Below, in pieces: positions 23,685-48,886 of a DNA stretch of 50,465 nucleotides. The notes beneath the pieces were generated by a model. That model worked only from the letters and a program-made list of their open reading frames with translations, had not been told where the DNA came from and made no database searches. The stretch lies in sequence record NC_105618.1. The stretch is one strand, 5' to 3'. The position numbers were made by a program, and so were the translations under genes. Within the stretch, counting starts at the first letter, position 1. Each line of letters begins with the position of its first letter. The DNA comes from a phage.

Positions 23685-24107
23685 ATGCATATTATCACTG
23701 GAGAGATCCGAAAAGAACCGAAGATTCTGGAACGTAACGGCGGCAATACTTACATCATCGAACTGGCAGAAAGCTACAAACCGCGCGATGGCGATCGCGA
23801 ATACACAAACTACACGTTCTTTTTTAGTGACGGTGGAAAGCCCGGACTTGCTGACTGGTATCGTGATGCGTTCCAGGTTGGTAGAGTGATCTCAGTATCG
23901 TGCGAAACGTTGAAGATCTCATCCCGTGAGCACAACGGAACTGTTTACAATTCATTGCAGGCGGCTGACTTCCCCAAACTTGTTTTCAGTCAAAGAGGTC
24001 AAGGTAATCAGCAACAACGAGCGCCGAATCAACAGCAACGCACTCAACAGCAATCACAACCAAAACCAAATCCTCAGTCAACTTTCGACGACGATATTCC
24101 GTTTTAA
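23685..24107 (+). CDS. ssb: single-stranded DNA-binding protein
   Basis: Gly/Gln-rich linker and C-terminal acidic tip DDDIPF characteristic of SSB. Confidence 0.8.
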   Translation: MHIITGEIRKEPKILERNGGNTYIIELAESYKPRDGDREYTNYTFFFSDGGKPGLADWYRDAFQVGRVISVSCETLKISSREHNGTVYNSLQAADFPKLVFSQRGQGNQQQRAPNQQQRTQQQSQPKPNPQSTFDDDIPF

Positions 24108-30406: not shown

Positions 30407-31120
30407 ATGAAAGACTTTAATGATATCGAAACAATCGACTTTGCAGAAACTGGGTGCTCATTCACTCGCGAAGCAATAGCATCAGGCGGTTATTATCAAG
30501 CATTGAAAACGCCAACCTGCAAAGAGATTTCTGGTCGTCGATACAAGGGAACAAATACGCCGGATGTTGTTCGTGATTTATGGTCAACTCCACGCGAGGT
30601 TATCGCATACCTTGAGGGTCGCTACGGAAAATATGATCTCGACGCTGCGGCAAGCGAAGAAAATAAAGTTTGCGAGAAGTTTTATTCCCAGGAAACAAAC
30701 TGCTTAAAACGTTGGTGGGGTAAAAATAAGCACGTATGGTTAAACCCTCCTTACAGTCGACCTGATATATTCGTCAAGAAAGCGATTGAGCAAATGGAGC
30801 ACAACAACCAGATCGATATTCTTTTACCTGCCGATAACTCGACTGCGTGGTTTACTGAGGCTCGACAGCACGCGGCTGAAATCATCTGGATTGAAGCTGA
30901 TTTGACTGAGGATATTGACGGCAATGAATACGCACGATCCGGTCGTCTGGCTTTCATATCAGGTGAAACTGGAAAAGCAGTAGACGGCAACAACAAAGGT
31001 TCGGTGATTTTTATTATGCGCAAACTTAAAGAAGGTGAGACGCAACAGACTCACTACATCCCAATCACAAGCATTTGCCCTTCTGTCAAAAACAAACGAG
31101 CAAAGGTGAGGAAAGTATGA
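30407..31120 (+). CDS. dam: DNA N6-adenine methyltransferase (phage Dam-type)
   Basis: DLDAAAS and NPPYS catalytic motifs. Confidence 0.8.
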   Translation: MKDFNDIETIDFAETGCSFTREAIASGGYYQALKTPTCKEISGRRYKGTNTPDVVRDLWSTPREVIAYLEGRYGKYDLDAAASEENKVCEKFYSQETNCLKRWWGKNKHVWLNPPYSRPDIFVKKAIEQMEHNNQIDILLPADNSTAWFTEARQHAAEIIWIEADLTEDIDGNEYARSGRLAFISGETGKAVDGNNKGSVIFIMRKLKEGETQQTHYIPITSICPSVKNKRAKVRKV

Positions 31121-31368
31121 TGAGCGAAAAAATGGTTCCTGTTAAATTAACTGATCAATGGTTATGGCTTCTTTATCGCGCTACGTGCTGCGAAATTATG
31201 GAGCAAAGCGGATTGACTAAGGATGTTATTGGCTGCGATCTGTGGGAGTTCACCAGTTCTCTTGATATGTCTTTCGATGAGATAAAAAATGAATATATCG
31301 AGCATTGGCCTTTGATTATCCAGAAAGACGTAGAGGAACTTAAAGCCGATACAATCTCACAGCACTAA
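31117..31368 (+). CDS. hypothetical protein
   Basis: ATGA overlap with Dam stop; in-frame ATG 31117. Confidence 0.4.
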   Translation: MMSEKMVPVKLTDQWLWLLYRATCCEIMEQSGLTKDVIGCDLWEFTSSLDMSFDEIKNEYIEHWPLIIQKDVEELKADTISQH

Positions 31369-35352: not shown

Positions 35353-36921
35353 TTAACCCATCAGTCGAGGATTGATGAAAACAATATCATCAATACGGCA
35401 AGTGTAGTTCATTTCTTCGAGCGTGATCAGCAAACTATCGATTCGCTCAGCTACTTTCTGTTGACCATTAAACGGCGTAACGTTCCGACACTTCGCAACG
35501 ATGCTATGAATCGGTGCTCGGCCTTTGTTCTTCTTCGCGATCTCAGTGATAACATCAATCAGCTTTCGAGATTCAGCCTCATCACCAGCATACCCGGCTG
35601 CGCTTGCGGACGAAAGATAAGTCCTGGAAAGCTCATTGAAAATCATAATCGCTTCCTGCATTGTCTCAAGATCAATCTCACGATTAGATCGGTTCGGTGA
35701 TTCGCCCTCCCAATTCTTGATCGTGTGAAGAACTGAAGCAATGCGCAAAGCGTGCTTATCGAACTTACCAAGATGACCGCGTAGCATTGAGTGAGAGTAT
35801 TTCCCCCCGGCGGCGAAATCCGGCTCCATAGCCTGACGCGCCAGGTTTAATTCACGCATAGCGTTACGGCTAACAGAAAGAACAACGTTTTCCTCCTTCA
35901 TGATGTTATGCACAAGTCGGTAATATTTGCTAACCAATCCGCGATCGACTTCCTTATACAGTGCATCACCATTTTCATCGCAAAGAATACGAGTACCTAA
36001 AAGCGGTTCCTCGCGAACCAACAGGAAACGCTCAGATACACCGATTCCTCGCTGGCCTGCATCCATTATACCCTTGATTGTTTCATCCTGAGCAATTACG
36101 CAGATCGAACCTACCGGGCACAGAGACAAGTTGTTGTCCTGATTTGAGCGAGCTACCTCCATATGGTTTTTATCCCACGCCTTAAGAATAAGCTCACTGT
36201 TAGATTTCTTATCTGAACCGCCATACGTAAGCCCGAGCAATGTATTTATTGCCGTTGCCTCATCAGAGATAACGGAAAAGTGGCCCTGAACAGCGGCTAC
36301 TTTCGCAAGACCTTCCGGTGTAGGATCTGATACAGCAAAAACAATATCAGCCATCTTCTTGATCTTCTCTTCCAGTTTTTCTTTGTCCTCGTACAGTGCC
36401 GCAGTCGTATTACCCTTCGGGTCGTTTTTAATTTCCTTCTCGACCTGACGTAGCTGACTGGTTAATCGGGTGCGTTCCTTTTTGCGCTCTTCATTCAGTC
36501 GCTGAATCTCCGCACGCATAGGTGTAATCGCCGCTGAGTTAATCGCGGATTTACCTGTTGACGGTGGCTGGCTGATTACCATGTAAAGAGCGGTCGGTTG
36601 CTCTTCTCCGTGATATTGCACCCAAAACTTACCGAGCATCGCGGCTGAGATGCACCCGATGAAATGAGCGTACGCGGATGACACCGGGAACTGGACTGAT
36701 TCAGCTTTTGCTTTTGCATATTCGAATACCAGGTTATCGCCACCTAACGAAATCAGAGGGAACTTATCGTTGCCGCTATTGATATCGATCGGATCTTGCC
36801 AAAATGAAACTGAGTCACCATAGCTGTTTTCACGAATTGCGATCGCCACCGGATTAACTCCAGTGCTATTGGCGATCTCAATAATCTGTTGGTAATTCAG
36901 TTTTGGCTTAATATTAAACAT
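35353..36921 (-). CDS. putative P-loop ATPase
   Basis: deviant Walker A QPPSTGKS and Walker B-like FSVISDEAT; AAGGAG RBS before in-frame ATG 36921 (track start 36984 runs through promoter module). Confidence 0.55.
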   Translation of the reverse strand: MFNIKPKLNYQQIIEIANSTGVNPVAIAIRENSYGDSVSFWQDPIDINSGNDKFPLISLGGDNLVFEYAKAKAESVQFPVSSAYAHFIGCISAAMLGKFWVQYHGEEQPTALYMVISQPPSTGKSAINSAAITPMRAEIQRLNEERKKERTRLTSQLRQVEKEIKNDPKGNTTAALYEDKEKLEEKIKKMADIVFAVSDPTPEGLAKVAAVQGHFSVISDEATAINTLLGLTYGGSDKKSNSELILKAWDKNHMEVARSNQDNNLSLCPVGSICVIAQDETIKGIMDAGQRGIGVSERFLLVREEPLLGTRILCDENGDALYKEVDRGLVSKYYRLVHNIMKEENVVLSVSRNAMRELNLARQAMEPDFAAGGKYSHSMLRGHLGKFDKHALRIASVLHTIKNWEGESPNRSNREIDLETMQEAIMIFNELSRTYLSSASAAGYAGDEAESRKLIDVITEIAKKNKGRAPIHSIVAKCRNVTPFNGQQKVAERIDSLLITLEEMNYTCRIDDIVFINPRLMG

Positions 36922-36997: not shown

Positions 36998-37414
36998 TTA
37001 TAAGTATTTGGCCTCAAAGGTTGTGCCGTCTGCGATACTAAAACCAACCTCTTCGCGAAATAAGGTCCAGCGACAACCATCTTCATCAAAGATGTAACCA
37101 GCTACTCCACCGAGAGCGCGACCGCTTTCAACCTGGTAACGCTTGCCAACTTTGAATGATTTTTTCATTGGGTTGCGATGGTCAAGCCCGGTGCACTTGA
37201 GTGTTTTGGTTTTAAGTTCAGTGAATTTTGCGAAGAAGATTTCATCAGATCCGTGAATCTGTAATTCATCGTGCTTTTCAAGTTTTAAATACTTACCACA
37301 CTTTAACTTAACCTCACGAGTACCATCGTAGCGCTCTCGACCTTTGTACAGGTTGTTAACTTCAAATCCTGTGATTTTGTCTGCGGAAGTACATTTAAGT
37401 TTGATGGATTTCAT
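36998..37414 (-). CDS. hypothetical protein with repeated K.KC...GK.Y domain
   Basis: two copies of small motif shared with ORFs 44097, 45595, 46658. Confidence 0.5.
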   Translation of the reverse strand: MKSIKLKCTSADKITGFEVNNLYKGRERYDGTREVKLKCGKYLKLEKHDELQIHGSDEIFFAKFTELKTKTLKCTGLDHRNPMKKSFKVGKRYQVESGRALGGVAGYIFDEDGCRWTLFREEVGFSIADGTTFEAKYL

Positions 37415-37450
37415 TGCGTTAACTCCTGATTGGTTATCTTGAATAAGGTC

Positions 37451-37496
37451 ACTTTATCAAATGACCTTACGGCAATATTAACAAATCGTGCTATTT
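37451..37496 (-). promoter_or_regulatory. palindromic-motif promoter module
   Basis: minus strand TAGCA-N5-TGTTA, 22 nt, TAAAGT in hairpin AAGGTCA...TGACCTT. Confidence 0.45.
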
Positions 37497-37707
37497 ACCA
37501 GGGAATATAATCATCGTCGTCATTATCACCAATATCATCGCTTGGCATCTCGAAGTCGGGATTATATTCACTTTCTGCGTCCATATCCATATTCCCTAGC
37601 GCGTCGTCAAGCGTAATTTCTTTATATGCAACCTTGATACACCATTCCGCACTAAGCCCGGCATCGAGCGCGGCAAAATAACGGGTCCAGAAATTATCCT
37701 GTTCCAT
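37495..37707 (-). CDS. small highly acidic protein
   Basis: 70 aa, C-terminal DDIGDNDDDDYIPW; very low predicted pI. Confidence 0.45.
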   Translation of the reverse strand: MEQDNFWTRYFAALDAGLSAEWCIKVAYKEITLDDALGNMDMDAESEYNPDFEMPSDDIGDNDDDDYIPW

Positions 37708-37710
37708 TAA

Positions 37711-37935
37711 TTAGCTCCATGAATTAATGTAAATCGAGTTAGCCTCAAGCGTTGCGCGAACATCCGCATCTGTTGCATTTACTAAGCGCGATCCTGGTGT
37801 GCTGCCAATAACATTATTACCGTTCCGAGACTTAGTTACCGTCATTGAAATAAAACCGGAAGACTTATCCATTTTGATAACTACACGCCCTTTCGCGTTC
37901 AGATGCTTGATGATATTCTCAACTTTAATGCTCAT
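37711..37935 (-). CDS. hypothetical protein
   Basis: track ORF with upstream palindromic promoter module. Confidence 0.45.
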   Translation of the reverse strand: MSIKVENIIKHLNAKGRVVIKMDKSSGFISMTVTKSRNGNNVIGSTPGSRLVNATDADVRATLEANSIYINSWS

Positions 37936-37961: not shown

Positions 37962-38013
37962 TGGGAGTAATATACCTTACTCCCTGTTTATTGTCTTTAG
38001 CAATTAGTGCTAT
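37962..38013 (-). promoter_or_regulatory. palindromic-motif promoter module
   Basis: minus strand TAGCA-N5-TGCTA, then hairpin GGGAGTAAG...CTCCC with TATATT. Confidence 0.45.
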
Positions 38014-38152: not shown

Positions 38153-38539
38153 TCATTTTTTACCGTCCCATGTTTGATACGCAGTCACAAGGTTAATGCT
38201 ACGGTCGAACTCGTCAATGCTAAGCGATCCGATTCGAACCAGTTCTTTATCATGCTTAATATCGATCATCCGGCTATATGGATGACCTGGCACGTATTTG
38301 AACAGTCGCTTTCTGTCAGCAATATCAGCGTTGATTCCATAGAATCTTCCTACTGCCGCCTTCACGCGCTCCATGATGTTTTTTTCGTGGATTGCTGCCG
38401 CGTTATTAAGCGCTGCAACCGTGCTTCCGTTAATCTTCGGTGATTTCGTTGTGATTTTATAAGTGTGGCTCATTATTCCCCCTAACCAGTCAGGATAGCT
38501 TTCTCGCTTCATCAATGATAACAGGTTCGAGACGCTCAA
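38153..38539 (-). CDS. hypothetical protein
   Basis: track ORF, TTG start. Confidence 0.4.
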   Translation of the reverse strand: MSVSNLLSLMKRESYPDWLGGIMSHTYKITTKSPKINGSTVAALNNAAAIHEKNIMERVKAAVGRFYGINADIADRKRLFKYVPGHPYSRMIDIKHDKELVRIGSLSIDEFDRSINLVTAYQTWDGKK

Positions 38540-38690
38540 GTCTAACTCGGAACGTGTTCATAAATCCTTCGTTATTCTTCAGTAGCTCGAATGCGTCTGT
38601 TGCCTCAATTGAGCTATTTCCCATGTAGGCAACTACGCTCTTTTGCGTCTTGCGTGAGATCGCAACCACTCGGTAGATATTATCACTCAT
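38490..38690 (-). CDS. hypothetical protein
   Basis: in-frame ATG 38690 overlapping upstream stop (ATGAGTGA). Confidence 0.35.
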   Translation of the reverse strand: MSDNIYRVVAISRKTQKSVVAYMGNSSIEATDAFELLKNNEGFMNTFRVRLERLEPVIIDEARKLS

Positions 38691-42306: not shown

Positions 42307-42501
42307 ATGGAAACGCAAATTGACGTAGTGGTTGTTCAGCGCGATTCAACTCACGAGAAGGGTCTGTTCAAGAAAGGAACCAAAATCACTATCGACCTTG
42401 AGGATATGGTTGCGTATCACTCGGGTCTTACCTGGAATGTGGTGCGAGTTGGCAGCGACTACAAACTCAAAGGCTTTAACACTTACTTTGCTGAGGCTTA
42501 A
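42307..42501 (+). CDS. hypothetical protein
   Basis: track ORF. Confidence 0.4.
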   Translation: METQIDVVVVQRDSTHEKGLFKKGTKITIDLEDMVAYHSGLTWNVVRVGSDYKLKGFNTYFAEA

Positions 42502-43833: not shown

Positions 43834-44025
43834 ATGGCTGATTTTATGCACCAAATGATTGCAGTATTCAAAGGCAGTGATGATGAGGAAGTTAAAGAGT
43901 GCTTTACCGTTGACAAGCCTTATAACGCGTCACTAACCAGCTTCGGGAATATCTCATTGCTTGATGATAATGGCGATCCCTGGATATTCGACGAAGACAC
44001 TGATTGCTTCGAGATTAAAGAATAG
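43834..44025 (+). CDS. small acidic protein
   Basis: 63 aa, Asp/Glu-rich. Confidence 0.35.
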   Translation: MADFMHQMIAVFKGSDDEEVKECFTVDKPYNASLTSFGNISLLDDNGDPWIFDEDTDCFEIKE

Positions 44026-48676: not shown

Positions 48677-48886
48677 ATGATGGTATCAACTGATAAGTTT
48701 TTCACTTGCACTAAAACTTCTGAAGTATTCGAACTGGTTCATACTGATAATGGCGATTTCATGCATGACGGTTGCGACGTTTTTATCGAAGTGAAAGAAA
48801 GCGACTATGATGACGGAGTTTATTATAACCCGACAGTGAACACTCAGTTTTTTACACCGATCGAAGAGGAAGGAGAAGAGGCATGA
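48677..48886 (+). CDS. small acidic protein
   Basis: 69 aa, acidic C-terminus EEEGEEA. Confidence 0.4.
   Translation: MMVSTDKFFTCTKTSEVFELVHTDNGDFMHDGCDVFIEVKESDYDDGVYYNPTVNTQFFTPIEEEGEEA

Follow-up and report, generated by a model that had tools for sequence, protein, structure and literature searches.

A conserved acidic protein of T1-like phages with a C-terminal tip resembling that of SSB

Results

ORF A encodes a small acidic protein under purifying selection

The window, that is, the whole stretch of DNA analyzed here, is a complete T1-like phage genome of 50,465 bp (Tunavirus, Drexlerviridae). ORF A lies on its minus strand at 37495..37707, starts with ATG, and encodes a 70-residue protein (MEQDNFWTRYFAALDAGLSAEWCIKVAYKEITLDDALGNMDMDAESEYNPDFEMPSDDIGDNDDDDYIPW) that belongs to the PHROG family phrog_9085. 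A GGAG Shine-Dalgarno sequence (37715..37718, minus strand) can be read 7 nt 5′ of the start codon, within the last codons of the upstream gene. The product has 20 acidic residues (14 Asp and 6 Glu) against 3 basic ones (2 Lys and 1 Arg), for a net charge of −17 and a computed pI of ∼3.1. An earlier, sequence-only reading had called a 70-residue, strongly acidic product at this position, and both the reading frame and the acidity are borne out. Its description of the protein as rich in Asp and Glu throughout is inaccurate, as residues 1 to 39 have a net charge of −4 and residues 40 to 70 a net charge of −13. Across 14 Tunavirus genomes, the dN/dS ratio of ORF A is 0.10, which identifies it as a real protein-coding gene, and the gene is under purifying selection.

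Two further ORFs had been described as similar to ORF A: ORF B (43834..44025, plus strand; 63 aa; phrog_11551; net charge, −12) and ORF C (48677..48886, plus strand; 69 aa; phrog_10456; net charge, −14; EEEGEEA tail). Both exist and are alike in size and charge, but sequence kinship is lacking, and ORFs A, B, and C fall into three different PHROG families. A comparison of ORFs B and C with hhalign likewise found no relation. All three ORFs have Shine-Dalgarno-like sequences and conserved homologues. When a rough set of 81 genes from the whole window was ranked, the net charge per residue was −0.24 for ORF A, −0.19 for ORF B, and −0.20 for ORF C; because the next most acidic gene reached only −0.11, the three are clear outliers in acidity. 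The fourth most acidic protein is encoded by an 83-aa ORF just after the Dam methylase gene (31117-31368, plus strand; phrog_2676; net charge, −9; pI, ∼4.1).

ORFs B and C occur in Tunavirus and a few relatives only (63 and 68 phage records, respectively) and form 6 to 7 clusters each in a database of 5.8 billion proteins. ORF C is predicted to be a six-stranded β-barrel, with only one of five AlphaFold models being confident. We also compared both ORFs with Gp54 of phage Bas11 (PDB 9axb), a small protein known as the second trigger of CapRelSJ46, a defence that it activates directly (PMC11578894). Between ORF C and Gp54 there was no signal (6% identity; hhalign probability, 0.2%), and hhalign found no relation between ORF B and Gp54. 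Within the window, Gp54 has its actual homologue in a 64-aa ORF at 42307-42501 (plus strand; phrog_7421; 60% identity over 45 aa). A 66-aa ORF at 38490-38690 was considered for this role and rejected, since its tblastn match is Bas11 gp53 and Gp54 matches 42307-42501. The leftward operon of Bas11 houses the Gp54 gene, which precedes the ORF A homologue by four genes; here, the Gp54 homologue belongs to the rightward operon.

ORF A belongs to a fixed gene module anchored by a helicase gene

The 1.7 kb around ORF A is 97% identical to the corresponding sequence of Escherichia phage vB_EcoS_Chapo and Shigella phage Shfl1 (both Tunavirus), and the gene order matches that of phage LeonhardEuler (Bas13) gene for gene. 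The first part of the genome carries, in order, the terminase, the structural genes, an ExoVIII-like exonuclease, an Erf-like annealase, the SSB, the tail fibre, a primase, and a helicase. The remainder carries Dam, the lysis genes, a leftward operon with a DUF3987 helicase, and a rightward operon made up of small genes. The genome lacks an annotated DNA polymerase, and the phage must therefore depend on host replication machinery. ORFs A, B, and C are distributed over two divergent operons on either side of an intergenic region at 41.0 to 41.7 kb. This region contains sigma-70-like sites, the number of which is not above shuffle expectation, and a promoter and terminator scan around ORF A also gave site counts not above shuffle expectation.

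The constant upstream neighbour of ORF A encodes a basic 74-aa protein (37711..37935, minus strand; pI, ∼10.6). The two genes are in the same reading frame, separated by one stop codon and one codon, and are annotated as a fusion in Shigella phage vB_SsoS_008 (P0062). They are probably translationally coupled, and the basic protein may be a partner of the acidic ORF A product. Hairpins at 37435-37470 and 37963-37984 flank this two-gene unit, and the equivalent sites are annotated as rho-independent terminators in another genome. A simple scan returned the 37963-37984 hairpin on the plus strand only and nothing at 37435-37470, and neither site has a clear T-run on the coding strand.

Downstream, the constant neighbour of ORF A encodes a 138-aa protein (36998..37414, minus strand; phrog_2684), and the module is anchored by the DUF3987 helicase gene (35353..36921, minus strand; PF13148, E = 1.5e-42; phrog_2373, DNA helicase). 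The fixed order comprises the ∼75-aa basic gene, ORF A, dcm in some phages, the ∼140-aa gene, the DUF3987 helicase gene, two small genes, and the lysis cassette. It is kept in all sampled relatives, down to those whose ORF A proteins are only ∼31 to 35% identical to the one studied here. The helicase is found in ∼900 phage records and the ORF A family in ∼455, so ORF A is widespread but not universal among helicase carriers.

The protein is predicted to combine a small helical domain with an unstructured, acidic tail

The structure of ORF A was predicted with AlphaFold2 on an alignment of 23 sequences. Residues 1 to 39 (37591..37707, minus strand) form a predicted N-domain of three short helices (residues 6 to 15, 20 to 27, and 33 to 38) with a pLDDT of 74 to 82. 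Past residue 38, the model contains no secondary structure, and the pLDDT falls to 50 to 60. The end of the N-domain overlaps a central motif at residues 33 to 46 (LDDALGNMDMDAES; 37570..37611, minus strand), which is conserved more strongly than any other motif in the family (TLDxALGDMDMDxES). This is followed by a variable, very acidic linker with no predicted structure (residues 47 to 66; 37510..37569, minus strand) and by the C-terminal tip YIPW (residues 67 to 70; 37498..37509, minus strand), which is similar to the SSB tip IPF-COOH. The stop codon comes directly after W70, which places a free α-carboxylate on the terminal residue. In the window, the C terminus reads DNDDDD-Y-IPW, with the acidic run directly before the tip.

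Selection differs along the protein. In the comparison of 14 Tunavirus genomes, the dN/dS ratio is 0.06 for residues 1 to 46, which span the N-domain and the central motif, and 0.16 for the tail, linker included. The codons of the tip show synonymous changes only and are otherwise invariant.

Database searches gave no function. Pfam, NCBIfam, and PHROGs provided no functional name for ORF A, B, or C, and sequence and profile searches of the PDB with these three proteins and the wider ORF A family returned no match. The central motif had no counterpart in the same PDB searches, and Foldseek of the ORF A model against the PDB gave no match (E values above 6).

The C-terminal tip persists across a family with an otherwise unalignable tail

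ORF A homologues form 63 clusters of close relatives. The N-domain is detectable in ∼455 records from phages of Escherichia, Klebsiella, Shigella, Salmonella, Citrobacter, and Enterobacter. The DUF3987 helicase and the ORF A family are also present, at levels like those of enterobacterial T1-like phages, in some 20 records labelled as Campylobacter phages (host, Campylobacter jejuni); the host labels of these records look doubtful. Distant relatives were collected from IMG/VR contigs and by an exhaustive profile search of 1.8 billion representatives. One of them, a 217-aa protein (P0085; L045, 6001-6654), joins the ORF A module to a Mu gp6-like zinc ribbon on a contig with contractile-tail genes (sheath and baseplate). 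A Phage_Mu_gp6 identity for the ORF A module was rejected: BLASTP showed that the Pfam match of this protein arises from its C-terminal zinc ribbon, and the match is therefore uninformative on ORF A.

Three elements are conserved in the family: the N-domain, the central motif, and the last three residues. In 20 representatives with 31 to 67% identity to ORF A, the conserved columns are A13, G17, L18, V26, A27, L33, A36, L37, G38, M40, D41, E45, and the penultimate Pro. L33, A36, L37, G38, and E45 are invariant in this set, M40 and D41 are at least 90% conserved, and distant relatives show little or no variation at A13, G17, L18, V26, and A27. The best-conserved element among these 20 sequences is thus the central motif rather than the tip. 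Distant relatives keep the N-domain and TL(D/E)xALGDMDMDxES and diverge completely thereafter, such that the 20 to 55 residues ahead of the tip are unalignable between lineages and not conserved in length.

The tip itself reappears beyond this divergent region. Every full-length close homologue inspected in two alignments ends in YIPW, while the preceding acidic stretch varies. An x-P-[F/W] ending is present in 105 of the 108 distinct small family members; the three remaining proteins end in PFW (two members, in which an extra Trp follows IPF to give IPFW) and ISF (one member). Divergent lineages mostly end in an exact IPF (...KFDDGIPF, ...CKDEIPF, ...CLDEIPF, ...CNECIPF, and ...CDDCIPF), and FPF, LPF, and IPW endings (e.g., ...DYDDFIPW) also occur. 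The terminal residue is Trp in all full-length Tunavirus members observed and Phe in most divergent lineages. In many members, a Cys-rich stretch (CxC...CxxC) takes the place of the acidic linker right before an IPF or FPF tip. This stretch looks like a zinc knuckle in relatives L019 to L041 and P0068 to P0088. A large subgroup, which includes Bas11 gp50, ends in ...C(K/P/S)RCFPF, with basic residues instead of the acidic run; the Cys stretch of this subgroup is a probable zinc knuckle. Bas11 itself keeps the tip DFDDDIPF on its own SSB while its ORF A homologue ends in RCFPF.

These patterns bear on an earlier proposal for ORF A, and perhaps for ORFs B and C, namely, that they are DNA mimics directed against type I restriction, BREX, RecBCD, or other DNA-binding defences. 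Their carboxylates would imitate the DNA backbone in the manner of Ocr, ArdA, Arn, and gp5.9. Consistent with this proposal, the three proteins are small and the most acidic of the genome (pI, ∼3.1 to 3.6; net charges, −17, −12, and −14), their operons read outward from a promoter-like intergenic region, and ORFs B and C are genus restricted, as accessory counter-defence genes often are. Acidic SSB-type tails can also occupy single-stranded DNA (ssDNA)-binding clefts, as in T7 gp2.5, and by this parallel, an ssDNA-mimic activity of the ORF A tail is conceivable. The predicted structure of ORF A, however, contains no compact, DNA-like array of carboxylates: 13 of its 17 net charges are placed in residues 40 to 70, which are predicted to be unstructured and so to form no rigid DNA-like surface. 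Moreover, relatives in which a Cys-rich stretch replaces the acidic one retain the tip and the N-domain, which means that the acidic stretch is evolutionarily dispensable and the tip is not. ORF A has no sequence or fold similarity to any solved protein, known mimics included, and the best structural match of ORF C is a β-barrel and not a DNA mimic. Finally, ORF A is widespread in a phage family, the Drexlerviridae, most of whose members are reported to be highly sensitive to restriction-modification, in some cases also of type I (PMC8594841). For these reasons, a folded double-stranded DNA mimic fits ORF A poorly, and we consider the DNA-mimic proposal very improbable for this protein, while ORFs B and C may or may not be such mimics; the more general element of the proposal, mimicry or competition by a small acidic protein, survives.

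The tip of ORF A resembles the docking tail of the phage's own SSB

The phage encodes a 140-aa SSB (23685..24107, plus strand) that ends in ...STFDDDIPF and matches phrog_44 (single-strand DNA-binding protein) over its full length (E = 6e-23). Bacterial SSB models TIGR00621 and NF006533 match this protein only over the C-terminal linker and tip (residues 73 to 140), and its N-terminal DNA-binding part is recognized by the phage family phrog_44 only. The SSB appears to combine a divergent ssDNA-binding domain with a retained host-type DDDIPF tail. We extracted all stop-to-stop segments of at least 30 aa from the six frames of the window (n = 867) and found an [ILVFM]-P-[FW] ending in two of them, the SSB and ORF A.

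Three papers describe DDDIPF as the conserved SSB-Ct hexapeptide for partner docking, which caps an intrinsically disordered linker and is used by at least 17 genome maintenance proteins (PMC5872125, PMC7293020, and PMC7145534). Like SSB-Ct (...MDFDDDIPF-COOH), the unstructured segment of ORF A closes with an acidic run and, as its very last residues, Ile-Pro-aromatic; divergent relatives of ORF A end in the exact IPF. Because an unstructured acidic segment is capped by Ile-Pro-aromatic-COOH, ORF A reproduces the logic of the SSB tail. The likeness is weakened by several features. In this phage, the protein ends in Trp instead of Phe and has Tyr instead of Asp at position −4. The flank of the tip is basic and rich in Cys in the Bas11-type subgroup even though the SSB of Bas11 keeps DFDDDIPF, and in the two members that end in IPFW, the additional Trp would bury the carboxylate of Phe.

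It could be asked whether the likeness is coincidental. The x-P-F/W end might instead be a private docking motif for a phage partner, such as the 74-aa basic protein encoded next to ORF A, or for a host protein that is not part of the SSB interactome, which would make ORF A a subunit of a small phage complex. A tip of only three residues, less conserved than the central motif, is a short signal that weakens the comparison with SSB and leaves room for such a reading, as do the RCFPF subgroup, which lacks an acidic flank, and the constancy of the 74-aa gene with its probable translational coupling. Coincidence is at odds with the recurrence of exact IPF-COOH in many divergent lineages, often after Asp or Glu, with SSB having the sole other such ending in the genome, and with the DNA metabolism context in which ORF A is located. 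On balance, we regard a private motif as unlikely. Other C-terminal motif classes, namely, the β-clamp motif QLxLF, the FtsZ peptide DIPAF, ClpP-docking IGF loops, and proteolytic degrons, were also considered and set aside as poorer fits than SSB-Ct.

Discussion

Our favoured reading is that ORF A acts on its own as a mimic of the C-terminal tail of SSB and docks into the pockets that receive this tail, a proposal drawn from sequence features and to which we give about an even chance of being correct. Several lines of evidence support it. The tip is kept in 105 of 108 family members while the residues preceding it cannot be aligned, and only SSB and ORF A share such an ending among all open segments of the window. 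As in SSB, the tip caps a segment that is acidic and predicted to be unstructured. The gene is under purifying selection, with an invariant tip and a fixed gene order, and it is found in a phage without an annotated polymerase. SSB-Ct peptides and mimetics are, furthermore, able to compete at SSB-Ct pockets (PMC10143822), which lends support to the idea that a protein with such a tip could do the same.

Mechanistically, the protein would consist of three parts: a helical N-domain with the conserved acidic motif, a flexible acidic linker, and the tip DDDDYIPW-COOH, which is akin to DDDIPF-COOH. The terminal aromatic residue and the free carboxylate would insert into the hydrophobic and basic SSB-tail pocket of an SSB-interacting protein, and the acidic run would rest along the basic ridge adjoining the pocket. 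Candidate targets include exonuclease I, RecQ, RecG, RecJ, RecO, PriA, DnaG, the χ subunit of Pol III, and Ung. The strong conservation of the N-domain and the central motif implies a second contact, which may give selectivity for one target. Selective engagement at two points is also favoured by the fact that the phage's own SSB has a DDDIPF tail: a general decoy would disable this protein as well, and interference of this kind would count against SSB-tail mimicry as such if ORF A were a general decoy. What the analysis shows directly is how the protein is built, which of its parts are conserved, that its tip is of the SSB type, and where its gene is located; that this tip binds SSB-tail pockets, which protein it targets, and what binding brings about are what we infer from these features.

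Two outcomes can be envisaged. ORF A may selectively block an SSB-dependent enzyme of the host that does harm to DNA intermediates of the phage, or it may recruit a host factor to the phage helicase module; we lean slightly toward the former. An example of blocking would be exonuclease I, which could act on the 3′ tails made by the ExoVIII/Erf recombination system of the phage. The enzyme is stimulated by SSB-Ct (PMC3159472) and has two adjacent SSB-Ct sites (PMC10143822). Both properties make exonuclease I an attractive candidate, as does the prospect that it would degrade the 3′ tails needed by ExoVIII/Erf.

Recruitment can be taken further, with ORF A acting as an adaptor of the phage replisome that uses the same SSB-tail mimicry to bring proteins together instead of blocking them. 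Its N-domain would bind one of the phage's own proteins (the DUF3987 helicase, the 138-aa protein, or the basic 74-aa neighbour), and its tail would bring in a host factor (Pol III χ-ψ, DnaG, or PriA), thereby coupling a polymerase-less phage module to the host replisome. There is a parallel in phage T7, where gp2.5 (the SSB) and gp4 (the helicase-primase) have acidic C-terminal tails ending in Phe, through which they dock to the T7 DNA polymerase. An adaptor role agrees with several observations: throughout the family, ORF A keeps its place in the helicase module, the genome has no annotated DNA polymerase gene, ORF A is widely conserved rather than sporadic, and the low dN/dS ratio of the N-domain implies a second specific partner. 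Against such a role, the phage SSB already has a canonical DDDIPF tip able to recruit host factors, and about half of the helicase records have no detectable ORF A homologue. We find a dedicated adaptor improbable, on a par with a private docking motif.

Returning to SSB-tail mimicry in its boldest form, ORF A and its ∼455 relatives would be the first natural stand-alone SSB-tail mimics, each plugging the pocket of one host enzyme, which would thereby be disarmed or passed on to the helicase module. We put this forward tentatively and think it somewhat doubtful. If true, mimicry of the short linear motif of the SSB hub would be a conserved component of T1-like phages, and the exchange of acidic for Cys-rich tails may represent retargeting to different pockets. 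The SSB tip serves as a hub that recruits at least 17 replication, recombination, and repair proteins and is an antibacterial drug target. SSB-tail mimicry by ORF A would illustrate how a phage can selectively exploit or obstruct this hub, would reveal which host enzyme matters most to T1-like phages, and could provide an evolved, possibly higher-affinity template for inhibitors of SSB interactions. It would also be the first functional handle for a family of hypothetical proteins, phrog_9085 and phrog_9323, found in hundreds of phages of Escherichia, Klebsiella, Salmonella, Shigella, and Citrobacter, some of which are in therapeutic use.

How does ORF A compare with known systems? It shares small size and strong acidity with T7 Ocr, T7 gp5.9, ArdA, and T4 Arn. 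In contrast to these proteins, which have compact folds and a DNA-like geometry of carboxylates, half of ORF A is predicted to be unstructured, and it has a conserved aromatic tip. Neither is ORF A an SSB, because it matches no SSB family in Pfam, NCBIfam, or PHROGs and its N-domain is predicted to consist of three short helices; unlike SSB, this small helical domain comes without an OB fold.

The nearest precedent for the ORF A tail is found in the SSB-like, acidic, Phe-terminated tails of T7 gp4 and gp2.5. The resemblance lies in the SSB-type acidic tail with a terminal aromatic residue, and gp4 sets the precedent for such a tail on a replication protein that is not an SSB. The T7 tails, however, belong to large enzymes without sequence relation to ORF A, which is a free-standing protein of 70 aa. 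In our full-text literature search, in which subscription journals were incompletely covered, we found no natural protein acting as an SSB-Ct mimic, and SSB goes unmentioned in a catalogue from 2025 that lists 268 anti-defence proteins of phages. The proposed mode of action, occupation of the IPF pocket together with a nearby second hot spot, is closest to that of the SSB-Ct mimetic peptides and small-molecule inhibitors of SSB-partner interactions described in PMC10143822 and PMC5872125. Those mimetics are laboratory compounds; what would be new in ORF A, if our reading is true, is short-motif mimicry by a natural, free-standing protein that uses an SSB-type docking tail.
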